Shown here: piece after piece, positions 15,779 to 63,939 of the stretch | Layout: every line of letters starts with the position of its first letter | How positions within the stretch are numbered: the stretch's first letter is position 1 | Source of the DNA: Gammaproteobacteria bacterium | GTDB taxonomy: Bacteria; Pseudomonadota; Gammaproteobacteria; Steroidobacterales; GCA-2729495 | Reading direction: 5' to 3' | DNA: 64,000 bases | Assembly: GCA_024277915.1 (NCBI GenBank) | Contig: JAJRUG010000044.1 | Coordinates: 79,490 to 143,489, forward strand | Made by a program: the position numbers and the translations under genes | Notes under the pieces: model-generated | Database searches by the model: none | What the model was told of the DNA's origin: nothing | Seen by the model: the letters and a program-made list of their open reading frames with translations, nothing else

Positions 15779-16585
15779 CTATTCTACTCTTTTGTCATTC
15801 GCGGTATTCGTTGTAAATTTGTTGGCCAGCCGAATGAAGGCATCTACATCGAGAGTTTCAGCCCGAACGTCAGGGTTGGTGTCTGTCGATCGGATTTCCG
15901 CTGCCGACAACATTCCCTTCAGGCAGTTGCTCAGTTTCTTGCGCCGCATGGAGAAAGCCTGCATGACCATCATGTCGAAATCAGATTCGCAGTGGATCGT
16001 TGCCATAATCGATGCATCCGGAACCAGCCGGATAAAGGCTGAATCCACCTTGGGCGGGGGAAGGAAGCTGCCAGGCTTGATACTGAACAATTCGGTGGCC
16101 TGGCAACGAGCCTGGATTGCCACCGATAGTCGCCCGTAGGTACGTGAACCGGGATCAGCAACCATTCGCTGTATGACTTCTTTCTGCAGCATGACATGTA
16201 TATCCCGAAATATCGTCGCCTGAGACAGAACGTGGAACAGCAATGGCGTGGAAATATTGTAGGGCAGGTTCCCAACCAGCCTGAGGCTCGCGGGGACTGA
16301 GGAAATCTGTCTGAAGTTGAATTTCAGCGCATTCGCCTGATGTACTGTCAGTGCGGGCTGCTCAGGGAGCTGAGCAAGGGATTTCGCCAGATCCCGGTCC
16401 AGTTCGATGACGTCCAGATGATCAACGAATTGCAGGAGCGGCAATGTCAAAGCACCACGGCCGGGCCCTATTTCCACAATATAGTCATCGCGTTGCGGTC
16501 GAATAGCGGCCACGATCTTTTCGATGATATTCCGGTCATGCAGGAAGTGCTGTCCCAGGTTTTTTCTGGGCGCGTTGAATGTCAC
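15779..16585 (-). CDS. rsmA: 16S rRNA (adenine1518/1519-N6)-dimethyltransferase
   Basis: 268 aa with a GTG start overlapping the pdxA stop (GTGA). LGQHFL and [10 protein letters not shown] motifs are present. Confidence 0.9.
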
Positions 16586-17604
16586 GATGTTCCGGCCAGC
16601 TCGATGGCGAGCTGAATTGCAGCCATCAGGCTGCCAGTATCCGCATTGCCGGTTGCAGCGAGGTCAAGTGCGGTGCCGTGGTCGACCGATGTTCTGATTA
16701 CCGGCAGACCAAGGGTGACATTCACCGCGTTGCCGAACCCTTTGGCTTTTAGTACCGGCAGACCCTGATCGTGATACATCGCCAGATAAGCATCAGATTC
16801 GCCGCCGGCATGGCGAGTAAATGCAGTATCTGCCGGGAGGGGGCCTGTTATTCGAATGCCATCTGCTCTCAGCTTGTCGAGCGCTGGAATAATGATCTCG
16901 ATTTCCTCAGTGCCCAGATGCCCGCCTTCACCTGCATGAGGATTAAGCCCGAGAACTGCAATAGAGGGTGATTCGATATGGAATAGTTTTGAAAGGCCAT
17001 CGTTGAGAATTCGAATAGTGGTATCGATACGAGTTGCTGTGATGTTTTCAGGTACGGCGGAGAGAGGCAGGTGCGTGGTGAGCAAGGCAACGCGCAGCGT
17101 ATCGGCAACCAGTATCATGACCGGAAGAGGGCTATCGGTCATTTCAGCCAGAAACTCGGTATGTCCCGTAAAAGGAATGCCTGCATCATTGATGATGCCT
17201 TTGTGCACAGGTGCTGTGACCATCGCATCGAACTCTCCCGCAACGCAGCCGCTGCAAGCTTTTTCAAGCATCTGAATCACGCTTCCCGCATTCCCGGCGT
17301 TTAACTTGCCTGCAACACAATCTGATTCCAGTGCAATTTCTGCAACTTACAGAATACCTGCTGTGCTACCGGCTCGCGGCACTTCGCGGGAATAGGGTCG
17401 AATACTGGCTGTAATACCCAAAGCTCTGGCGCGCCTTGCCAGCATGTCCGGGTCACCGATAGCGACCAGCTGCACCGGCCAGTCTTTTTTGCTTAGCAAT
17501 AAAACAAGATCAGGGCCGATACCGGCAGGCTCGCCGGTCGTAATCGCAATACGTGGAATTTTGTTGGGCGTGGTCGTGGGTGTTGCTCGCGCTGGATAGG
17601 GCAC
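16582..17604 (-). pseudogene. pdxA: 4-hydroxythreonine-4-phosphate dehydrogenase interrupted by one in-frame TAA (17347-17349)
   Basis: ORFs 17347..17604 (ITTGEPAGIGPDL...TAGIL*) and 16582..17280 (...[21 protein letters not shown]...) are in the same frame. The 66 nt between them translate as [22 protein letters not shown], which is colinear with E. coli PdxA. Only the TAA breaks the frame. Confidence 0.7.

Positions 17605-34438: not shown

Positions 34439-34442
<4 letters not shown>
32964..34442 (+). CDS. gatA: Asp/Glu-tRNA amidotransferase subunit A
   Basis: 492 aa with the amidase signature [14 protein letters not shown]. Confidence 0.95.
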
Positions 34443-35858
<1,416 letters not shown>

Positions 35859-35869
<11 letters not shown>

Positions 35870-38231
35870 ATTCCGGTTCGCCCCCCCTGTACCTCATCCA
35901 GCCGAGTAAACCAAGCGCCGATCCGAACAGCCACACGGCAGCGGGTACCGGCACGGCCGAAGGCATGAGAAAACCGCTGCCGTTCAGTGCGAAGGTCTGG
36001 CCACCGAGGTAGCCATTGCCTGCCAGCAACGGGTTGTAGTAGATGTTGTAGTCACTGAAGATATAGTCGATCGTCAGCGTGGTCATATTAACGCCATCGG
36101 CCAGGCTCACCAGGCCGGCGTAAAAAGCAGCATTCCCGTCGTTGTTGCTGTCCCATATATTCAGGCGGATGCCGGATCCCAGCGATAACCCGCCCCAGGC
36201 GAAGTTATTGCTATAGCCACTGCCCCCGGTGCCCAGGTCGATACCGGCAAAATAAAGGTTCTGTACCCCGGCACCTTTGAAGATCAGGCTTGCAGCCCCG
36301 GTATTCCACAGGGTGTTTTGCAGGCTGTTGTTGGTGAAGTCACCGTTGACAAACCAGTTGGCACTCGCACCGCTGACCAGATAGCCGGTTCCGCCGATGA
36401 TGAGATTGGTGAAGTAGTTGTCGGCCGATCCGCTGAGGTAGGCGCCGTTGTTGGTGAAGGTACCTGCCCATATAGCCCTGGCGCTCTTGGCTTTTACCGT
36501 GCCCGTGGCTGTATTGGTGACATTACCGTTGACCGTGAGGCTGCCCGTGCCCGAGAGGTTGAAGTTCACATAGTTGATGATGATATCCGCGCTGAGTGAG
36601 CCGCCCGTGTAGTCGAGGGTATCGTTGTTGATAATCCTCCCGGCCCTAAGCGTGCCGCCGGAGAGGTTATAGGTGCCTGAACCTGTACTTGCGCCGATGC
36701 CCAAGTTGTTTGTCACTATATTCGTCCCGCCGGTCTGGGTGAAGGTGCCTGTGCCGTGGGTGCCGATGGCTTCATCATAGGTCGTGATCGTGTCCGTGCC
36801 GCTCAATGTATGGCTGCCGCTGGCACCGGAAGCAGAGCCGAGAATGAGTGTGCCAACGTCAATATCACCGCCGGCAACATTCAGCGTGCCGCCATCAATG
36901 ATCAACGCGCTCGAGCCACTACCGTTGAGAATGTCTCCGCCCACATCCATGGTTCCGCCGTCAATGATCAACGTGCTCGAGCCACTACCGTTGAGAATGT
37001 CTCCGCCCACATCCATGACTCCGCCCGAAAGGGTGTACGTTCCGCTGTTCATCCCGTTGCCGAGAGTGAGGTTGTTCGTCACCGTATGGGTACCGCCGGA
37101 CTGGGTGAAGACCCCGAAACCGGTTCGGCCGATGGCTTCAGAGCCGGCCGAGAGGGTGCCTCCATAGAGGTTGTAGCGGCCGTTGCCTGTCGTGCCCCAG
37201 CCGAGAACGAGATCGTTCGTCACCGTATTCGTGCTGCCGATTTGCGCATAGTTGCCTCTGCCGGCGTAGCCGATATATTCATTATCCGCGTACAGTGGGT
37301 GGGTGGGGTGCTGTGTCAGTGTCACGCCGGCGCCGCCGGTGCCGCTGATGGAGTCGATGGTGAGAGAACTCAGTCTGTCAGTCGGAGCCGTGTAGAGTGT
37401 GTTGTAGTAGTCGACATTTACGCGGTTGGCAAAGTTGAACTGCAGATTGACGATATCACCCGGCGCCGGTTGGGCACCGCTGTCCCAGTTGCTCCCTATG
37501 TCCCATTGACCGCTGTTGGCTATCCAGTTGACCGTTGCTGCCTGCGCTGACAGCGGCATGGTTGTTATTACCAATACCAGGGCTGCTGCCAGCCCCTGCC
37601 CGAGTTGCTTATGCAGAGGTCGCTTTTTCTTTATCCAGCCGAGTAAACCGAGTGCCGAGCCGAACAGCCAGACTGCTGCGGGCACTGGTACCGCCGTTAG
37701 CGAAGTCAGGTTAAATGCACTGTTTGGGTTCGTAGTCGCTGGAATATTGAGTCGAACTTGGTTAGCTTGCCTGTCGAATGCGTCGAGTGGCGGTGGTGTC
37801 AACGGCAACGAGACATCGGAAAAAACCAGGCCGCTGGCATCAACAAGCACAATCTGAAAATCGGTGTCGCTCTGAGCCGGACCCTCAGACCCATAGACCA
37901 TATACTCGTCGGTGATACCGTTGCCTCCGATCTGGTTGCTCACCCTGATCGTGAATGGGTTGATCTGAAAGCTCGATGAACCGATGGTTGCGCTGATACC
38001 GACTCCGGAACCGGAGAAATTGTAAATTCCGCCCGAACCGACAACAGAATCGTCGAACGTGAATGATCCGGAGAAAGTGTCGCCGATCGATGTGCCCCCG
38101 TAGCTATTGACCTGTCCGATCTGCGTGACAACGCCCGTGAAATTGAATGTGACCAGCGCAGCCTGCGCTCCGGACACCATTAACATGACAAAAGTGCACA
38201 CAGCACCTGATAGCAGATTGGATTTTTTCAT
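35859..38231 (-). CDS. large surface protein with two tandem in-frame (signal peptide - passenger - PEP-CTERM) modules
   Basis: ORF 35859..38306. ATG at 38231 follows AGGAG ([24 protein letters not shown]). Module 1 ends in [24 protein letters not shown] (nt ~37633-37692). It continues without a stop into [27 protein letters not shown], then a Gly/Thr/Asn-rich beta-helix-like repeat passenger, and ends in [23 protein letters not shown] (nt ~35897-35955). Confidence 0.7.
36888..37013. repeat. 63-bp tandem duplication inside the PEP-CTERM gene
   Basis: It encodes [13 protein letters not shown](T/A)LIIDGGT twice. The two DNA units are nearly identical. Confidence 0.85.
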
Positions 38232-38253
38232 CGTATTTCTCCTGTTCAATTGA

Positions 38254-38514
38254 TTACTGCGCCTGCCGTGCTGGAGAACGGGATTTTGCATAAACCACCC
38301 GGCCATCTGCGAGTGTGTGACGCTCGATCAGCTGTGCGGTTTCAAGTTCTTCCACCGCCTGCTGTACACGGCCGAGCGAGTATTTCGCCATTCGTTGCAA
38401 CAGCCACCACTGGCGAATGCCTTCGATCGAGTCGGCTGCATTGGGTTGCTCGTCGAGGTAGCCGAGCACTTCAGACTGGATTTCCGAGCGGGTGACATGG
38501 TGTGAACATTTCAT
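38254..38514 (-). CDS. 86-aa hypothetical protein (possible winged-helix-like fold)
   Basis: ORF 38254..38652. The ATG at 38514 sits 6 nt after GAGGA (MKCSHHVTRSEIQ...LIERHTLADGRVVYAKS). An alternative ATG is at 38547. It stops 22 nt upstream of the PEP-CTERM gene start. Confidence 0.5.
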   Translation of the reverse strand: MKCSHHVTRSEIQSEVLGYLDEQPNAADSIEGIRQWWLLQRMAKYSLGRVQQAVEELETAQLIERHTLADGRVVYAKSRSPARQAQ

Positions 38515-38551
38515 ACAGGTTCCTCGTTGCTGGTTGATCGTGATCATCGCG

Positions 38552-38613
38552 CCTCGAAAAACCCCCGCCGGACGGTCGGCGCGAAGGAAGAACAGTCCAC
38601 CCGGCGGGGTTTT
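38552..38613 (-). terminator. strong terminator-like hairpin in the leader downstream of the sigma54 promoter
   Basis: Minus-strand RNA is GAAAACCCCGCCGGGUGGAC-(21 nt)-GUCCGGCGGGGGUUUUU. The stem is ~17 bp, GC-rich, and followed by U5. An A-tract on the 5' side makes it symmetric (bidirectional type). Confidence 0.5.
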
Positions 38614-38635
38614 CGCAAAGACGCAATGAGTCTGT

Positions 38636-38651
38636 TGCAATCGCCGTGCCA
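38636..38651 (-). promoter_or_regulatory. sigma54 (-24/-12) promoter
   Basis: The minus strand reads TGGCAC-GGCGA-TTGCA, a full match to the TGGCAC-N5-TTGCW core. It lies 122 nt upstream of the 86-aa ORF and downstream of a sigma54 activator gene. An IHF-like TTTCAAtgagTTA is at 38670-38682. Confidence 0.7.
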
Positions 38652-38777
38652 ATGCTGCGATTAACAGGTTTTCAATGAGTTAGGAGGATCGGAATCAGAC
38701 CGGCCGGGTCAAAACGGATCCACCTGATAGCACCCACAATGCACCGGGGAAGGTGGTGCTCGACCGCTGGTCTTGGT

Positions 38778-38878: not shown

Positions 38879-39901
38879 CTAGCGCTGAAAGCTGTGTACC
38901 TCGATCCGGTGTTTCTTCAGCAGTTTGCCGAAGGCACGCCTTTCCTTCTGTGCAAAGGCTGCGGCATTGGTTACATTGCCGGCGGATCGTTCGAGCGTGC
39001 GGCGCAGATAGTCGCGCTCGAACGATTCGATCACACGCACCTTGGCTTCGGCAAATGGCAGCGCATACAGATTATCGGCAGCTTCCGTCGCATCACTATC
39101 GAGTCTGTCCGGAAGCAGGTGACACGGCAAAACTTCATCATCCTGGGCGAGCAGCAGGCCGCGCTGAATGCAGTTCTCAAGCTCACGGACATTGCCGGGC
39201 CATTCGTGTTCTGTAAGCCAATCGAGTGTTGCCTGGCTCAGGAACTTGCTCTCCAGTGCATATTGCGCCGCAAACTGAACCAGGAAATGCCTGGCCAGTA
39301 ATGCGATATCTGATTGATGTTCGCGTAAAGACGGCAGTCGAATCGGCAGGACGTCCAGGCGATAGAAAAGGTCATTGCGAAATTGCCCTGGCGTTTTACG
39401 TAGTTTGTCGAGGTCAATATTAGTTGCGACGATAATACGCACGTCTGCGGTTCGGAGCCTGGTGCCGCCGACCCGCCGAAAGCTCATATCCTGCAGGAAG
39501 CGCAATAAGGTGACCTGGGCTTTCGGCGTCAGGGCTTCGATCTCGTCAAGGAACAACGTGCCACCTGCGGCCTGTTCGACGAGGCCGGTATGACTCTCGC
39601 GTGCATCGGTGAAAGCGCCGCGCCGGTGGCCGAATAGTTCGCTCTCGACGAGCGCGTCGGGTAACGAGCCGCAATTGACCGGGATGAATGGCCCGGATGC
39701 ACGTGTGCTGAGATAGTGCAGCGACCTGGCGACCAGTTCCTTGCCGGTGCCGGTCTCACCGTAGATCGAAACAACGACGTCGTAGTTGGCGACGCGACGG
39801 ACGGTGTCGATGATCGTGCGCAAGACGGGGGCATTACCGATCAGGTTGGTCGGCAGTAACTCGGCAGACACAGCATCTGCACGAGATGAGCACGGTTGCA
39901 T
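38879..39901 (-). CDS. sigma54-dependent transcriptional activator lacking an N-terminal sensory/receiver domain
   Basis: 340 aa. The AAA+ core begins ~20 residues from the N-terminus. It has Walker A GETGTGKE, GAFTDA (a GAFTGA variant), Walker B LFLDEI, GNVRELEN, and a C-terminal Fis-type HTH GNVTNAAAFAQKERRAFGKLLKKH. Confidence 0.85.
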   Translation of the reverse strand: MQPCSSRADAVSAELLPTNLIGNAPVLRTIIDTVRRVANYDVVVSIYGETGTGKELVARSLHYLSTRASGPFIPVNCGSLPDALVESELFGHRRGAFTDARESHTGLVEQAAGGTLFLDEIEALTPKAQVTLLRFLQDMSFRRVGGTRLRTADVRIIVATNIDLDKLRKTPGQFRNDLFYRLDVLPIRLPSLREHQSDIALLARHFLVQFAAQYALESKFLSQATLDWLTEHEWPGNVRELENCIQRGLLLAQDDEVLPCHLLPDRLDSDATEAADNLYALPFAEAKVRVIESFERDYLRRTLERSAGNVTNAAAFAQKERRAFGKLLKKHRIEVHSFQR

Positions 39902-57123: not shown

Positions 57124-57966
57124 GTGCAGTACGAAAATCCCGAAATCCCGGAAGGCATCAACACCAGCAACGAGCACCCGCTGAAGGAGCTGGTGTGGTT
57201 GCTGGGCGGTGTGGTACTCGTCTCGGTCATCGTTGGCCTTTTTCTGGTATTTGCCACCAATCTGTCTATCGCCCTGGTGCCATTTTCATACGAACAAGAG
57301 ATCGCTGCGCCATTCGTTGCTGAGCTGGAGCATGAGGAAGGAGAGATCAGCGCATACTTGCAGGCGCTGGCAGAAGACATGTCCACCTGGCTGGATCTGC
57401 CCTCCGATATGTCGCTTCAGATGCACTATATCGATGAAGAAACAGTCAATGCATTCGCAACGCTGGGTGGACATATCTTTATATACCGCGGACTGGTTCA
57501 GGCGATGCCCAGTGAAAATGCGCTGGCGATGGTTGTGGCGCACGAAATTGCTCACATCAAACAGCGTGATCCAATCGCCTCTTTGGGCAGAGGGGTTGTG
57601 TTCATGATTGCGTGGTCGTTGGTGACCGGTGCCAGCGGCAGCGATATTGGCGGGCAGGCTTTAGGTCAGGGCGGCCTGCTCACGTTGTTGAGCTTCAGCC
57701 GTGATCAGGAACGCGCGGCTGATCAGGAAGCAATAAAGGCAGTAGAGCAACGTTATGGGCACATCGCAGGTGCCAGTGCATTGTTTGAGCAGCTGGAAAA
57801 AGCACAACAGGGTAGTGCTGATGCAGTGCCACAGTTTTTCAGCTCACACCCGCTCAACGAGGATCGCAGTGTTGATATCGAACAGCTGGCAGATGCTCAT
57901 GCATGGCAGACAGCAGGCGAGCTGACACCATTGCCCGGATTTGTTTCGAGGCGTGTGGCAGAATAA
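57124..57966 (+). CDS. M48-family zinc metallopeptidase
   Basis: 280 aa with a GTG start, one TM helix, the HEIAHIKQRD motif and a downstream ERAADQEA. Confidence 0.8.
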   Translation: MQYENPEIPEGINTSNEHPLKELVWLLGGVVLVSVIVGLFLVFATNLSIALVPFSYEQEIAAPFVAELEHEEGEISAYLQALAEDMSTWLDLPSDMSLQMHYIDEETVNAFATLGGHIFIYRGLVQAMPSENALAMVVAHEIAHIKQRDPIASLGRGVVFMIAWSLVTGASGSDIGGQALGQGGLLTLLSFSRDQERAADQEAIKAVEQRYGHIAGASALFEQLEKAQQGSADAVPQFFSSHPLNEDRSVDIEQLADAHAWQTAGELTPLPGFVSRRVAE

Positions 57967-58030
57967 TCAGGGAATCAGAAACATACAGGGTGAGAAGAAT
58001 GATCGATAGCAAGAGCCTGGGTCTTTCAGT

Positions 58031-60346
58031 ATGACGAGATCAGTCAGATCAGTAGCCTTACTCGGAAATTTTCTGCCAAGACAATGTGGCATCGCCACTT
58101 TCACTGCCGACCTGGCCGCTGCGATTGTCGAAAATGATCCGGGCATCGATTGTTTCACCGTGGCGATGAATGATCGGCCGGAGGGCTATGAATACCCTTC
58201 GACGGTACGATTCCAGATTCAGCAGGGCAAATTGAATGATTACAGTGTTGCAGCGGATTATCTGAACACGAGTGGTGTGGATGCCGTCAGCCTGCAACAT
58301 GAGTACGGCATATTCGGCGGCCAGCGGGGCAGCTTTATCATCGAACTCGCACGAAGCCTGAAAATGCCTCTGATCACGACGCTGCATACAATATTACGTG
58401 ATCCGTCGCCGCTGGAGCACTGGATCATCACTGAGCTTGCCCATTTATCCGAGTTTCTGGTGGTGATGAGCGAGCGCGGCAAGAGGTTTCTGCGGGAAAC
58501 CTATCGAGTGCCGGAGGCGAAGATCAGGCTGATCCATCACGGCATTCCCGATATCCCTTTTCTCAATCAGGATCCCTGCAGGAGCAAATTTGTCGCAGAC
58601 GACAAAATCATGATCCTGACTTTCGGTCTGCTCTCACCGGGCAAGGGCATCGAGTTTATGGTAGATGCTCTGCCCGATATCATTCGCACCCACCCCCAGG
58701 TATTGTATTTCGTGGTCGGCGCGACCCATCCGCATCTCAGGGCCGAGAGCGGTGAGGATTACCGCCTGAGCCTGCATCATCGGGCAGAACATCTGGGCGT
58801 CGCCGAGCACATTGTCTTCTATGATCGGTTCCTTGATCGTGCCGATCTGCTGGAAATAATTCGGGCGGCGGATCTCTATGTCACCCCCTATCTCAATGAG
58901 GCTCAGATCGTTTCGGGTACTCTCGCCTACGCGCTGGGTGCGGGAAAAGCAGTGGTCTCCACACCCTACTGGCACGCACTGGAGATGCTGGCTGATAATC
59001 GGGGCCGGTTGGTTCCCTTCAGGGATCCTCAGGCGCTGGCTACAACAATTAATGAACTTCTGGAGCGTCCCGAGGAGTGTCATGCCATGCGTGCTGACGC
59101 CTATGAATATTGCCGACCCATGGTAATGGCGGAAATGGGCCGCCATTACCTGGAGGTTATCGCTGCAGCAAGGGACCAGCACGTGCAGGTGCCCAGGGAA
59201 CAGCCGGCTCTCGAAACGCTTAGCGGGCGTGAGCCACGATTACCACAGATTAATTTGGAACATGTCCGGCTGATGACGGATGGCACAGGCATGCTGCAGC
59301 ATGCCAAGTTTACTGTTCCGGATCGGGCGCATGGGTACTGTGTCGACGATAACGCACGTGCGTTGATTGCCGTGATCAGGGCGCACAGCCTGAATAAAAC
59401 GGATGATTCACTAACCGAGCTGTCTACCGTGTACCTCAGCTTCCTGGATGATGCATTCAATCGTGAGACCGGAAGATTCCGGAATTTCATGTCCTTTAAC
59501 CGGCAGTGGCTTGAAGAGACCGGTTCGGAGGACGCCCATGGCCGGGCAGTCTGGGCCCTGGGCGTGGTGGCCGGGCATGGGCTCAATCAGGGCCAGGTTG
59601 CGGTTGCCACCGGGCTCTTTTGGGATGCATTGCCGGCATTGGATAGCTTTTCGGATTCTCGCGCCATTGCCTTCCCCATTCTCGGGATACAGGCTTACCT
59701 GCATCGAAACGGAGATGATCACCGGGCCTTGGGCATCCTCAAAGCGCTGGGCAACAGGCTTCAGGAGCGCTTCCGGAAATATGCCACGGACAACTGGCTT
59801 TGGCACGAAGAAATGCTGGCCTATGACAACGCGCGTTTACCCCAGGCGCTCATGGCCTGCGGTCATGCGACCAATGATGATGAAATGGTGTCGCTTGGCC
59901 TCAGGGTTCTCCAGTGGTTGCGAGACATCCAGATCGACCCCTCCGGGGGCTGGTTTTCACCGGTCGGCAATCAGGGCTGGTACTCAAGATCGGGCAGCAA
60001 GGCTCAATACGATCAGCAGCCCCTGGAAGCAGCAGCCATGATCGCCGCCTGTACGGAAGCACATGCATGTACGGGAGATGACGAATGGGTTCAGCTCGCT
60101 TCCACCTGCTTCAGCTGGTATCTGGGGAACAATGATCAAAGAATCAAGCTTTACGACCACACCGGCGGGGGATGCCGTGACGGACTCCACGCTGCCGGCG
60201 TTAATGAAAACCGGGGCGCGGAATCAACGCTCTCTTACGTTCTTTCGCTGCTCGCCATTTATAATCTTCGCGGCTTGACAACGGGTCCAAACGGCGCCGG
60301 GGAGCAGGCCTTCGCAAACGATCTGCCGGAGCCTCAGGAATTCTGA
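58031..60346 (+). CDS. GT4 glycosyltransferase with a ~390-aa C-terminal extension of unknown function
   Basis: 771 aa with an N-terminal GT-B/GT4-like half (VALLGNFLPRQCGIATFT...). The C-terminal half is helical and Trp/Gly-rich, and could be an alpha/alpha-toroid-like fold (not verified). Confidence 0.7.
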   Translation: MTRSVRSVALLGNFLPRQCGIATFTADLAAAIVENDPGIDCFTVAMNDRPEGYEYPSTVRFQIQQGKLNDYSVAADYLNTSGVDAVSLQHEYGIFGGQRGSFIIELARSLKMPLITTLHTILRDPSPLEHWIITELAHLSEFLVVMSERGKRFLRETYRVPEAKIRLIHHGIPDIPFLNQDPCRSKFVADDKIMILTFGLLSPGKGIEFMVDALPDIIRTHPQVLYFVVGATHPHLRAESGEDYRLSLHHRAEHLGVAEHIVFYDRFLDRADLLEIIRAADLYVTPYLNEAQIVSGTLAYALGAGKAVVSTPYWHALEMLADNRGRLVPFRDPQALATTINELLERPEECHAMRADAYEYCRPMVMAEMGRHYLEVIAAARDQHVQVPREQPALETLSGREPRLPQINLEHVRLMTDGTGMLQHAKFTVPDRAHGYCVDDNARALIAVIRAHSLNKTDDSLTELSTVYLSFLDDAFNRETGRFRNFMSFNRQWLEETGSEDAHGRAVWALGVVAGHGLNQGQVAVATGLFWDALPALDSFSDSRAIAFPILGIQAYLHRNGDDHRALGILKALGNRLQERFRKYATDNWLWHEEMLAYDNARLPQALMACGHATNDDEMVSLGLRVLQWLRDIQIDPSGGWFSPVGNQGWYSRSGSKAQYDQQPLEAAAMIAACTEAHACTGDDEWVQLASTCFSWYLGNNDQRIKLYDHTGGGCRDGLHAAGVNENRGAESTLSYVLSLLAIYNLRGLTTGPNGAGEQAFANDLPEPQEF

Positions 60347-61828
60347 TCAGCTTAGCCGATGCGCCTTGAACCGGGACAGGAGCTCGGGAATCGAGATGGT
60401 GGCGATTCTGCACCTTTGATCGGCAATGCCATAGGGGACAATCAGCGTGTCCTCATGCACCATGCTGCCGCAGGTATAAACCACGTTGGGCACGTACCCT
60501 TCCCGCTCCTGCTCGTCAGGGGACAGTATCGGCTCAGGGAGCCTGCCGATGACCCTGGTCGGATCGTCAAGGTCCAGAAGCTCGGCCCAGATACTGTATT
60601 TGCGCATCGGTCCGACCCCATGGAACAGCGCAATCCACCCCTCGGATGTCTCCACCGGCGAACCACAGTTACCGACCTGAACAAATTCCAGCGGATGAAC
60701 AGGTTCCTGCAGCAGTTGCGCATCATTCCAGAAGCGGAGGCTGTCCGAGAACATGATGTAATTATTGACCCCATCCTGGCGTGACAACATCACGTATTGG
60801 CCATTGATTTTCCTGGGGAACAATGCCATGCCCTTGTTCTTTACGGCATTACCGCTGAGCGTATGAATCTTGAAGGTCAGAAAATCAGTTGTCTCGAGAA
60901 TCTGCGACAGAATCACAAACCCATTGTAGGCTGTGTACGTTGCATAGTAGTTGACCGACCCGTCATCATCGACGAAGCGTACGAAACGCGCATCCTCGAT
61001 ACCACCTGCTTCATTTTCCGTTACCGGGAAAATCACCCGCTCTGAGATTTGCTGATCCGGGCTGAAGATCACTTCATAGTTTGACCGGGTCAGCCATAAC
61101 GCCATATCAATCGCGTGCTGCTTGTCCTTTCGTGTAAATCGGGTTGATCGGAGGCTCTTGATCCGGGTTTTCAGCTGATCAATGGTGAAGGTTTCTTCCA
61201 GCCCCCCCAGAAGATGAGCCACGACCCGGTCTCGGGCGCCGACCTCTTCGAGCTTTTGCTGAAAGTGGAGGCGGTGATAAAGCGGGTCTGTGTGAATTTC
61301 CGGTGTGGCGACATACTGACTGACGGCATCGAGAAAGATATCGCTGTTTTTGTCAATGATTCCGCAGCGGAATTCAATCGAAGAGATATGACCTTCACCC
61401 GTTGCCCGGAAACTCATGATGAATCGCCGGGATCCTTCTTCCAGGTCTTCCTGATCGGGGTGAGAGACGATGGAAGGGTTGAATAGTGCTGCGGATTCTA
61501 CCGAGTATTCGCAGGTCATATAGGCGCCAAGCAGGAGACGTTTCTCAGGCGACAGACAACATCGTTTTGGTACATGCTGTGCAATCCGCTCGAAGTTTCT
61601 TTCCAGAGCTTCCCGGAAATTCCGGTGCCGGGCGGAGAACTCCTGGAGTACCGTCTCCAGCAGATGGAGCACGTCATCGTCACTCAGCCCGGCGACGCGA
61701 TTGATCAGGCCCTTGATCCGGGCTTTGTCGCCGGGAATGTGTGGCCGCGTGATGACACGCGAACTCTCGGCATTCAGCAATGTTGGCTGTCGTTTGACCA
61801 GTTGCCGGCGCTGTTCTCTGACTCTCAT
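60347..61828 (-). CDS. GH130-like (beta-mannoside phosphorylase/hydrolase family) protein with a ~180-aa N-terminal extension
   Basis: 493 aa. The C-terminal two thirds parallel the 314-aa GH130 gene (GIEDARFVRF...YYATYTAYNG...GWIALFHGVG...VPNVVYTCG). Its stop abuts the stop of the 771-aa gene (TGATCA). Confidence 0.65.
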   Translation of the reverse strand: MRVREQRRQLVKRQPTLLNAESSRVITRPHIPGDKARIKGLINRVAGLSDDDVLHLLETVLQEFSARHRNFREALERNFERIAQHVPKRCCLSPEKRLLLGAYMTCEYSVESAALFNPSIVSHPDQEDLEEGSRRFIMSFRATGEGHISSIEFRCGIIDKNSDIFLDAVSQYVATPEIHTDPLYHRLHFQQKLEEVGARDRVVAHLLGGLEETFTIDQLKTRIKSLRSTRFTRKDKQHAIDMALWLTRSNYEVIFSPDQQISERVIFPVTENEAGGIEDARFVRFVDDDGSVNYYATYTAYNGFVILSQILETTDFLTFKIHTLSGNAVKNKGMALFPRKINGQYVMLSRQDGVNNYIMFSDSLRFWNDAQLLQEPVHPLEFVQVGNCGSPVETSEGWIALFHGVGPMRKYSIWAELLDLDDPTRVIGRLPEPILSPDEQEREGYVPNVVYTCGSMVHEDTLIVPYGIADQRCRIATISIPELLSRFKAHRLS

Positions 61829-61976
61829 TTTAACGATTGCGTATCAACAGGATCTGGCTAACAATGATTCCCGGTAGCTGGCCCGGGCCGCGAGGGCACG
61901 GAGTATAGCCCCAAGGTTCACCAGAAGCATATATTACGAATCACAGTTTCAATAATTGCCGGTTTCGAGTATTACC

Positions 61977-63005
61977 ATGCGTATCGCCGTCCTCAGTCCC
62001 GTTTCGTGGCGCACACCGCCACGCCACTACGGCCCATGGGAATCCGTGGTCAGCCTGCTCACGGAAGAGCTGGTGCGACTTGGTCTGGATGTCACCCTGT
62101 TTGCCAGCGGCGATTCGCTCACCAGCGGCAAGCTGGTTTCGGTTTGTCCGCTTCCTTACTCGGAGGATTCCCGGGTCGATCCCAAGGTTGCAGAGTGCCT
62201 GCATATTTCCGAGGTATTCGAGCGTGCTGCTGAATTCGACCTTATTCACAATCACTTCGACTTTCTGCCACTGACCTATTCCGGTCTGGTTGATACCCCG
62301 GTCGTCACCACCATTCATGGCTTTTCTTCACCATCGATCATGCCCGTGTACAAAAAATACAATGCTCGTTGTCATTACGTCGCGATCAGCGCAGCGGACC
62401 GGTCGCCGGATCTCGACTATCTCGCGACCATTCATCATGGTATAGACATTGCGCAATTCCCCTTTTCCGGGGCCGAGGGGCAGTATCTTTTATTCTTTGG
62501 CCGGATTCATCCGGACAAAGGCGTACACGAAGCGATCCGGGTGGCGAAGCGGGCCGGCATCAAACTGGTGATTGCCGGCATCGTGCAGGATCAGCACTAC
62601 TTTCAGACCCAAGTCGAGCCGTATCTGGACGACACAACGGTAGAATATCTGGGCTCCGTCGGGCCTGACCGGCGCGGCGAGTTACTTGGCCGGGCGATCG
62701 CATTGCTGCACCTGATCAACTTTAACGAGCCATTTGGTTTGAGTCTCGTGGAATCCATGGCCTGCGGCACGCCGGTGATTGCATTTGGCCGTGGGGCGAT
62801 TCCGGAAATTATCAGGCACGGAGAAACCGGTTTCATCGTTGCAGATATCGACGAGGCAGCCGAAGCAGTAATGGAGATCCCTGCCATCACCCGATCAGCC
62901 TGCCGGAACGATGTCGAGCAACGATTTTCACATACGCGTATGGCACAGGATTACATCACGGCATATCGAAAAATTCTTGAAGCGGAAACAACTGATGAGC
63001 ACTAA
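61977..63005 (+). CDS. GT4 glycosyltransferase
   Basis: ORF 61956..63005. The ATG is at 61977 (MRIAVLSPVSW...). An EX7E motif FNEPFGLSLVESMACGTPV is present. Confidence 0.8.
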   Translation: MRIAVLSPVSWRTPPRHYGPWESVVSLLTEELVRLGLDVTLFASGDSLTSGKLVSVCPLPYSEDSRVDPKVAECLHISEVFERAAEFDLIHNHFDFLPLTYSGLVDTPVVTTIHGFSSPSIMPVYKKYNARCHYVAISAADRSPDLDYLATIHHGIDIAQFPFSGAEGQYLLFFGRIHPDKGVHEAIRVAKRAGIKLVIAGIVQDQHYFQTQVEPYLDDTTVEYLGSVGPDRRGELLGRAIALLHLINFNEPFGLSLVESMACGTPVIAFGRGAIPEIIRHGETGFIVADIDEAAEAVMEIPAITRSACRNDVEQRFSHTRMAQDYITAYRKILEAETTDEH

Positions 63006-63939
63006 ACTGATTGTCGAGCGTTATGCAGGAAATCCCATCCTGACAAAAGATGATGTGCCCTATGCTGTGGAGACGGTTCACAATGCGGGTGCAACCCGGT
63101 ACGGGGAGCGCTATGTATTGCTGTTTCGTTCCCACTTGAGGAATGGAAGGTCTATTATCGGGATTGCCTGGAGCGACGATGGCTACCGGTTCCAGGTGGA
63201 ATCCGAACCCTTCATGGTGCCATCCACGGAAGGAGCTTTCTCGGCATACGAAGAGTACGGTGTCGAGGATCCGAGAATCTGCTTCATCAATGATCAGTAT
63301 TACATTACCTATAGTGCCTATTCCAGATTCGGTGTCCGTATTGGCCTGGCGAAAACCTGTGAGTTCAAAACTGTCGAGAGGGTGTCACTGATCAGCCAGG
63401 CGGATATGCGCAATGTGGTGCTTTTCCCGGAAACCTTCAATGGTCGTTACGCACGGCTGGACAGGCCTCACTCGGAAATCAATCCCTGGTGCATCTGGTT
63501 ATCCTGGTCTACGGACCTGGTGCACTGGGGCGATTCTGTACCCGTGATTCAGCCTGTAACCTATCATTGGGACGAGATGAAAATCGGCCCGGGTGCAACA
63601 CCGATTAAAACCCCGGAAGGCTGGCTCAATATCTACCACGGCGTATTCCCCACTATGGATGGCGCGGTGTATCGTCTGGGTGTGGCACTGCATGATCTGG
63701 CTAACCCCGCCAGGGTCATCGGTGTAGCCGATGACTGGATTCTGTCGCCGGAAGATTCCTGGGAATTGACAGGTTATGTGCATAACGTCGTTTTTTCTTG
63801 TGGTGCCATCGCGGAGCAGGACGGTACGGTCAAAATTTACTGGGGTGGTGCCGATAGTGTCATGTGCGTCGGCACGGCAAAGATTAGTGATCTGGTTGAG
63901 CTCTGTTGCAAGAATGCCAGGCCGGCTTTGGCCATCTAG
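62995..63939 (+). CDS. GH130-family glycosidase/phosphorylase
   Basis: ORF 62911..63939. The ATG at 62995 overlaps the GT4 stop. YGVEDPRICFINDQYYITYSAYS, GWLNIYHGV and VHNVVFSCG are typical of GH130 (former DUF377). Confidence 0.8.
   Translation: MSTKLIVERYAGNPILTKDDVPYAVETVHNAGATRYGERYVLLFRSHLRNGRSIIGIAWSDDGYRFQVESEPFMVPSTEGAFSAYEEYGVEDPRICFINDQYYITYSAYSRFGVRIGLAKTCEFKTVERVSLISQADMRNVVLFPETFNGRYARLDRPHSEINPWCIWLSWSTDLVHWGDSVPVIQPVTYHWDEMKIGPGATPIKTPEGWLNIYHGVFPTMDGAVYRLGVALHDLANPARVIGVADDWILSPEDSWELTGYVHNVVFSCGAIAEQDGTVKIYWGGADSVMCVGTAKISDLVELCCKNARPALAI

Follow-up and report, generated by a model that had tools for sequence, protein, structure and literature searches.

A probable lineage-specific in-frame join of two exosortase-type cargo genes in a gammaproteobacterial contig

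Proteins sorted by the PEP-CTERM/exosortase (EpsH) system have a signal peptide, a passenger rich in Thr, Ser, Asn and Gly and free of Cys, and a tail that combines a Pro motif with a transmembrane helix and a basic cluster. Fewer than 10 further residues follow 87% of the tails in the published set (PMC1569441). Control of PEP-CTERM genes by sigma-54 is likewise established (PMC1569441, PMC9850573). The window analyzed here is a stretch of 64,000 nucleotides (nt) from a gammaproteobacterial contig (GenBank JAJRUG010000044.1, positions 79,490 to 143,489 of the forward strand). Its minus strand carries an open reading frame (ORF) of 790 amino acids (aa), from the ATG at 38231 to the stop codon at 35861-35859, that contains two complete signal peptide/passenger/tail modules in tandem, as the original prediction had described. 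The interpretation favored, with moderate confidence, is that of a lineage-specific in-frame join of two formerly independent exosortase-type cargo genes, the product of which would be processed into two cargos. The fusion itself is very probably real in the genome.

The fused gene has a Shine-Dalgarno sequence, AGGAGA, at 38238-38243, and its frame stays open upstream to an ATG at 38306 (815 aa). Signal peptide 1 (aa 1-24; 38160-38231) ends in an AQA/A site (...SGAQA/A, with the slash at the cut) that is conserved in the orthologue P0121 (ASGAQA/A). It is followed by the module 1 passenger (aa 25-180, 156 aa; 37692-38159), an all-beta domain according to an AlphaFold model, and by the 19-residue core of sorting tail 1, which is internal to the ORF and equals the consensus of its class (aa 181-199; 37635-37691). 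The junction of 10 residues (37605-37634), with the basic loop KKKRPLHKQ, doubles as basic cluster of tail 1 and as n-region of signal peptide 2; it contains an A5 run (37628-37624), a CTG (37616-37614) and a TAA in the minus-1 frame (37611-37609). The hydrophobic core and cleavage region of signal peptide 2 (aa 210-231; 37539-37604) again has an AQA/A site and corresponds to the signal peptides at the N-termini of P0084 and P0059. The module 2 passenger (aa 232-759, 528 aa; 35955-37538) is a Gly/Thr/Asn-rich repeat protein of beta-helix type, as judged from its homologues and composition. Sequence comparison shows that the core of tail 2 (aa 760-778; 35898-35954) consists of the same 19 residues as that of tail 1. 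The end of the protein after the tail Trp (35859-35897) comprises 12 residues and the stop codon, includes a G7 run, and overlaps the 3′ end of the convergent gatB gene (34439-35869, plus strand) by the predicted 11 nt. The two sorting tails of the fused ORF are the only ones of this kind in the window.

A search with module 1 retrieved five stand-alone proteins of 206-241 aa (P0121-P0125), and all five end 4-11 aa past the basic cluster. The closest, P0121 (206 aa, 72% identity), ends GLLGWMRRKAA-TAA on contig L083 and is followed by a clean intrinsic terminator and then by an unrelated sulfatase gene; like the fused gene, it sits downstream of a sigma-54 activator gene. DNA homology between the window and L083 (559 nt, 78% identity) ends at 37633, which is the junction. 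The AlphaFold model of module 1 is all-beta with a predicted local distance difference test score (pLDDT) of 68.7. A fold search of the PDB with this model gave no match below E = 0.1 (best E = 0.16) and no functional lead.

The search with the whole protein gave 119 homologues, all of which match module 2 only, with at most 72% query coverage and 30-59% identity over parts of the length of module 2. None of the 119 has a second module, and those with an intact N-terminus carry a signal peptide of their own. No module 1 gene was found upstream of the genes for P0084 and P0067. The original prediction had left the ancestral state to a comparison of orthologous loci; with P0121 standing alone and no two-module protein among the module 2 homologues, this comparison shows that two separate genes are ancestral and that the fusion is derived. 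Composition bears out the predicted Gly/Thr/Asn-rich passenger 2 (18% Gly, 11.7% Thr, 10.4% Asn, no Cys). The homologues P0055, P0074 and P0113 carry the JGI name T5SS/PEP-CTERM-associated repeat, and others carry PF12951. Pfam and NCBIfam scans of the module 2 segment itself gave no match at E ≤ 1.

The predicted lack of an ATG or GTG ahead of signal peptide 2 is also evident. Between Trp199 and the AQA site, the frame contains a CTG, one TTG, an ATA and one ATG that comes too late, with neither a GTG nor a Shine-Dalgarno sequence. Such sequences are present for gene 1, as given above, and for the genes of P0084 (GGGAG) and P0121 (AGGGG). Module 2 has thus lost its own start codon and ribosome-binding site and can be made only as part of the fusion.

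Some further observations concern the passengers. Residues 100-205 of module 1 (37608-37930) align with the last approximately 120 residues of P0101, P0059, P0068, P0091 and P0025 at 27-30% identity (E 7e-8 to 9e-4). Since the C-terminal half of module 1 thereby aligns with the ends of module 2-type proteins, the two passenger families may share a pre-tail domain. In module 2 there is a 66-nt tandem duplication (36889-37025, minus strand; 2.1 copies, 94% identical), whose repeated 22-aa unit includes (T/A)LIIDGGT and which looks like a recent repeat expansion. Five of the 119 module 2 homologues (P0002, P0029, P0096, P0119 and P0120) have 35-60 read-through residues after an otherwise normal tail, and stop loss at these tails seems to be a common accident.

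Both tails read VPVPAA and contain no Glu; the near-invariant Pro-Glu-Pro motif is absent and the signal is a Glu-less variant of the VPLPA type, not a canonical PEP-CTERM. The module 1 homologue P0122 does have a Glu, in IPEPS. The whole protein scores 20.1 bits on TIGR02595 (PEP_CTERM; cutoff 16) and falls below the cutoffs of Pfam PF07589 (19.4 vs 20.7 bits) and of TIGR03370 (VPLPA-CTERM; 24.6 vs 25.35 bits), while each module alone reaches 12-13 bits on the PEP-CTERM models. Three proteins named by NCBI "VPLPA-CTERM sorting domain-containing" (P0145, P0148 and P0154) have tail cores that are one position off each. A literature search on VPLPA-CTERM returned one incidental mention. A transmembrane helix and a basic cluster are present in both tails (IKKKR in tail 1, MRYR in tail 2). 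With 591 residues after its Trp, tail 1 is far from the extreme C-terminus, a position that tail 2, with 12 such residues, roughly occupies. In addition, signal peptide 1 is separated from the terminal tail by two hydrophobic segments, those of tail 1 and of the signal peptide 2 core; each module taken alone has none. It should be noted that the basic cluster MRYR of tail 2 is atypical and that this end contains the G7 run and extends 11 nt into gatB; reading the run as G6 or as G8 does not make the end more canonical.

The 57-nt tail cores differ from each other at nine positions, all of them synonymous and at the third codon position (pS 0.55, dS about 1.0). The original prediction had counted ten differences, all synonymous; the tenth is in codon 20, after the cores, where ATA vs ATG changes Ile to Met. 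From this identity with diverged synonymous sites it had also argued that selection maintains both signals within the ORF, and here the prediction does not hold. The exact 19-aa core is found in 100 of 238 tail-bearing proteins fetched, with unrelated passengers. Judged from these sequences, the core is the consensus of a VPLPA/PEP-CTERM-like signal in small gammaproteobacterial proteins, which form a very large class. Tails as alike as these would therefore be expected for any pair of cargo genes within a genome, and their identity is uninformative on the age of the fusion or on a function of the internal tail. Within the 100 proteins with the identical core, 93 end no more than 10 residues past the Trp and seven extend further. 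The typical ending of the class is W-[MIVL]-[RK]-[RK]-[RK]-[A/T/S]-x-stop, with a modal post-Trp length of 6.

Two mutational origins of the junction are weighted about equally on the sequences at hand, the loss of one A from an A6 run (H1) and a deletion between in-register AAAAAG stretches (H2). One extra A in the A5 run at 37628-37624 gives WIKKKATSA, followed by the TAA at 37611-37609. This reading agrees with the original prediction, which had given the run more broadly as aaagaaaaag (about 37622-37631). The shifted ending WIKKKATSA-stop fits the tail consensus and resembles the WMRRKAA-stop of P0121, also in DNA (GAAAAGC), and the sequences make a one-A frameshift a serious candidate for the mutational origin. 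In the H1 ancestor, gene 2 would start at the present CTG (MHKQLGQG...), with an 8-nt overlap, ATGCATAA, with the stop of gene 1; the signal peptide of P0059 has MHKQL at the position that matches this CTG (...MHKQLLSL).

Under H2, a single deletion would join the AAAAAG (Lys-Lys) of tail 1 to the AAAAAG at the start of gene 2, and no second mutation is needed. The 5′ end of the P0084 gene reads ATG AAA AAG CAA CCA CAA CAT AAG TCA TTC GGG CAG GGT CTG GCA GCC GCC CTG, and the window junction reads AAG AAA AAG CGA CCT CTG CAT AAG CAA CTC GGG CAG GGG CTG GCA GCA GCC CTG. From 37631 on, the two align without a gap at 44 of 54 nt, and in this comparison BLASTP pairs a 16-residue stretch with KKQPQHKSFGQGLAAA. 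If the KKRP match to P0084 represents homology, no frameshift ever occurred. A homopolymer sequencing error is possible under H1 only; an H2 origin makes it impossible. An overlapping-gene ancestor with both the shifted tail end and a P0084-like n-region was considered and rejected, because an ATG at that spot turns the basic cluster of tail 1 into INEK and destroys it. Thus one of the two resemblances, the P0121-like end or the P0084-like n-region, must be due to chance. A degenerate DNA search for a 10-residue signal peptide stretch found only the gene of P0084 itself and one out-of-frame match, and so favors neither H1 nor H2.

Other searches for the unfused or the fused state were as follows. 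The junction DNA, with either A5 or A6 allowed, is absent from JGI metagenome contigs. No protein expected from the unfused state (a gene 1 product with the end KKKATSA; a gene 2 product started at CTG, TTG or ATG) occurs in a collection of 15 billion proteins. A search with the junction-spanning protein gave single-tail proteins only, each covering at most 23% of the query. Exact look-ups of the 790-aa protein found no encoding contig elsewhere.

Double-tail proteins do occur elsewhere. A phmmer search of 1.84 billion representatives with a 34-aa tail 1 query gave 1749 matches, in which P0246, P0247, P0249, P0252 and P0253 rank first, since phmmer scores sum across matched stretches. There are thus at least five other double-tail proteins, or about 5 of 1749 tail matches. 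All five consist, in this order, of a passenger, a tail, a basic loop, a hydrophobic segment with a small-x-small site (AxA or HxA) at its end, a second passenger and another tail. P0247 is identical on seven contigs from six samples (L090-L095), which indicates that such fusions are real but rare; its first tail is devoid of VPxP. P0246 is found on four contigs (L097-L100), and P0253 (L096) differs from P0363 by one residue, both being fused. At the junction of P0252 (L088), one RRR cluster is common to tail and signal peptide and there is no Met; a third cargo gene lies directly upstream, and such cargo genes thus occur in tandem. The junction of P0249 (L089) is an in-frame read-through, HRRRYA/MRG.... 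The junction of P0253 (L096, 3592-3804) has AGAAAAGG in the basic cluster, and the minus-1 frame there gives ...KRHENTL-TAA; the ATG of its second module lies within AGAAAAGG, with the frame relation seen in the window.

How a fused precursor may be processed is suggested by the positive-inside rule and the -3/-1 rule. Passenger 1 would be exported by Sec until the helix of tail 1 stops transfer (N-out, C-in), leaving the KKKRPLHKQ loop in the cytoplasm. The former signal peptide 2 would then re-insert (N-in, C-out) and restart translocation, and a cut by signal peptidase I after AQA231 would free passenger 2, a cargo then anchored by its tail in the normal way. A two-helix hairpin would hold passenger 1, and the first helix of this hairpin would still offer VPVP at the periplasmic face. 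An exosortase encoded outside the window could then process both VPVP cargos in a 1:1 ratio. The topology is self-consistent, as the original prediction had noted, and a double-cargo function of the fused ORF is plausible on this sequence-based model.

Several points weigh against this interpretation. According to Haft et al., a tail located at a distance from the C-terminus is likely non-functional (PMC1569441). The identical 790-aa protein is present in NCBI as a singleton cluster, encoded on a contig of 147,385 bp. As predicted, no exosortase-like gene was detected in the window by family models and hydrophobic-segment scans; four or more hydrophobic segments are otherwise found only in HtpX and in a RodA-like ORF of the mreBCD-mrdA cluster, and the scan of about 30 further ORFs gave housekeeping genes or no family match. 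A search for orthologous loci by gatB in 185,579 species genomes gave no synteny, the best gatB among the matches listed being 73% identical. The junction sits at a homopolymer and the shifted frame yields a textbook tail end. A stop 2-6 codons into the shifted frame is expected by chance at 21% of positions in the window genes, and the Ala/Thr at positions 5 and 6 of the shifted end push the chance figure below this value. The rate of about 5 in 1749, together with the read-through tails, is also compatible with sporadic accidents. Finally, pdxA (16585-17604, minus strand), in the conserved lptD-surA-pdxA-rsmA-apaH operon, has an in-frame TAA at 17349-17347; its N-terminal part matches positions 1-55 of TIGR00557 and its C-terminal part positions 72-320, in the same frame. 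Whether a genuine nonsense mutation or a base error, this TAA means that the genome or its assembly has at least one other gene-disrupting lesion.

Among the loci listed in the gatB search, one alone has a similar tail (L007, 12848-12931, minus strand; 83% identical), about 9 kb downstream of gatB. It belongs to a gammaproteobacterial metagenome-assembled genome, and the gatB there is 72% identical.

The original prediction held that a frameshift or sequencing artefact had to be excluded; this concern is narrowed by the CTG-only start and the many full-length genes of the window, and is not closed. According to this explanation the true run is A6, gene 1 ends WIKKKATSA-TAA, and gene 2 is translated by coupling from the CTG at 37616-37614. 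The consensus-like, P0121-like end in the shifted frame, the location of the junction at a homopolymer and the matching MHKQL of P0059 all speak for it. CTG starts are very rare in bacteria, however, and gene 2 would require one with no Shine-Dalgarno sequence. Moreover, the window is 93% coding, and its roughly 59 kb of coding sequence, with 193 homopolymers of at least 5 nt, showed no other indel-type break. GatA, GatB, SurA, LptD, MetF, MetH (1242 aa), PrfA, PrmC, HtpX and others are full length relative to their models. The pdxA lesion is a substitution, not an indel, and so points to real mutations or base errors and not to homopolymer problems. In the frame as it stands, the codons for Lys-Lys-Arg-Pro correspond to the n-region of P0084, and the analogous A-run junction of P0253 is fused in two independent samples. 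An artefact is thus judged quite improbable. Assembly chimerism at the repeated tails was rejected: they share no identical stretch longer than 17 nt, and what follows the join is a signal peptide n-region and not a tail.

A fusion that is real, yet a neutral or mildly harmful recent lesion of pseudogene type, has more in its favor, though it too is considered unlikely. The internal tail would then be misprocessed and have no function of its own, with module 1 stuck in the inner membrane or the fusion degraded. The singleton status of the protein fits this, as do the pdxA stop in the same window, the accident-compatible rate of double tails, and the P0247 first tail, where the missing VPxP suggests decay of an internal signal. 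Read-through of more than 10 aa past the Trp occurs in 5 of 119 module 2 homologues and 7 of 100 consensus-core proteins, and such sporadic tails imply that stop loss and frameshift at tails are common accidents. On the other hand, both modules are fully intact and free of stops and frameshifts over 2.4 kb, the two tail cores agree perfectly with the consensus, the internal AQA/A site and hydrophobic core are preserved, and the fused P0247 and P0253 persist across independent samples. Programmed minus-1 frameshifting of the dnaX type should also be considered. The zero frame would then give the fused precursor, and a slip on G_AAA_AAG (37629-37623) the stand-alone module 1 ending WIKKKATSA-stop, in a set ratio. 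AAA-AAG does lie in the zero frame, the tail end read in the minus-1 frame is canonical, ribosomes of E. coli are prone to slip on A_AAG, and the independent P0253 gene has the same layout with A-run Lys codons and KRHENTL-stop in its minus-1 frame. But the heptamer is not a full X_XXY_YYZ, as a G precedes it; no Shine-Dalgarno-like stimulator is found upstream, the fold of the downstream RNA is no more stable than that of shuffled sequence (z = -0.39), four of six double-tail junctions lack such a frame relation, and a mutational hot spot in poly-A Lys codons explains both cases more simply. This mechanism is therefore rated extremely improbable. Also highly improbable is the broader idea that tandem exosortase cargos fused via a shared basic cluster are a recurrent functional polyprotein design, with an internal signal peptidase I cut giving two surface proteins in a fixed ratio and a dnaX-like minus-1 slip (window and P0253) giving the stand-alone first cargo. 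No evidence points to a special function of the fused arrangement, and its recurrence elsewhere is rare.

Upstream of the fused gene, on the same strand, is a gene for a receiver-less sigma-54 enhancer-binding protein (38879-39901), PspF/NifA-like, with AAA+ and helix-turn-helix domains. Its matches to NCBIfam sigma-54 activator models are all below equivalog cutoffs, and on PEP_resp_reg (TIGR02915) it scores 285 bits vs a cutoff of 502. The sole zero-mismatch match to TGGCAC-N5-TTGCW in the 64 kb, TGGCACGGCGATTGCA, is at 38636-38651 on the minus strand. Between this promoter and the fused gene, the only terminator-like site is a weak one at 38581-38566. The interval also holds a small minus-strand ORF (38254-38652; likely 86-97 aa from an ATG at 38514 or 38547), which is weakly winged-helix/MarR-like (Pfam MarR_2, 17.9 bits; cutoff 27) and has no NCBIfam match. 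The sigma-54 promoter at 38651-38636 probably drives the fused gene, and the enhancer-binding gene, promoter, small ORF and fused gene look like a small sigma-54 operon. At the orthologous module 1 locus, L083, the upstream activator is of the NtrX-like response-regulator type, and no sigma-54 consensus within two mismatches was found there. Farther away in the window, 57124-63939 is a cluster of GT4 glycosyltransferase-like and beta-1,2-mannobiose-phosphorylase-like genes. These give weak sub-cutoff matches to glycosyltransferase models of PEP-CTERM/XrtA systems, and no exosortase is among them.

Processing of the fused precursor along the proposed lines would make it a natural test of exosortase sorting, for which little biochemistry exists so far. 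One question is whether exosortase needs a free, short C-terminal tail or just a correctly oriented motif plus helix; another is whether cleavage of internal signal peptides in precursors of this kind is routine for bacterial signal peptidase I. The fusion suggests a simple route of evolution as well, whereby the Lys/Arg codon run of a tail and the Lys/Arg-rich signal peptide start of the next gene are a hot spot for fusion within arrays of tandem cargo genes. If the fusion is an accident only, it serves as an annotation warning, as PEP-CTERM-type matches far from the C-terminus can mark fused or frameshifted neighbors.

In comparison with known systems, each module of the window ORF has the same components as the cargos of PEP-CTERM/exosortase systems described at the outset, the fused gene shares with their genes a sigma-54 promoter and an enhancer-binding protein upstream, and its tails resemble VPLPA-CTERM (TIGR03370), with a core one position away from those of the NCBI-named members P0145, P0148 and P0154. 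The ORF differs from these cargos in its internal tail and in having two cargos on one polypeptide. It has two hydrophobic segments between signal peptide 1 and the terminal tail where the family description has none, and no cognate exosortase is found within the 64 kb. Module 2 is similar, over parts of its length, to T5SS/PEP-CTERM-associated repeat and PF12951 proteins, which carry a PEP-CTERM tail or an autotransporter beta-barrel (PF03797); unlike the T5SS/PEP-CTERM-associated repeat proteins, module 2 matches no repeat-family model and has no start codon of its own.

The double-tail fusions P0247, P0253/P0363, P0249, P0252 and P0246 have the same module order as the window ORF, but their passengers are unrelated and they come from different organisms. 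P0252 also has one basic cluster common to tail and signal peptide and no Met, and P0253 also has an A-run junction. P0249 and P0253 keep the second Met that the window ORF lacks, and P0247 differs in its first tail.

A literature search on bacterial polyproteins with internal signal peptides found nothing usable. In Bradyrhizobium japonicum, FbcH (cytochrome b-c1) is a bacterial membrane polyprotein precursor that is split at an internal signal peptide. Unlike in FbcH, the two halves of the window protein are not known to be partners, the cleavage is predicted only, and a singleton takes the place of a conserved gene. Like FbcH-type polyproteins, the window ORF combines in one frame an internal signal peptide-like segment, a small-x-small site and a membrane-embedded first part, and would give two mature proteins in a 1:1 ratio.

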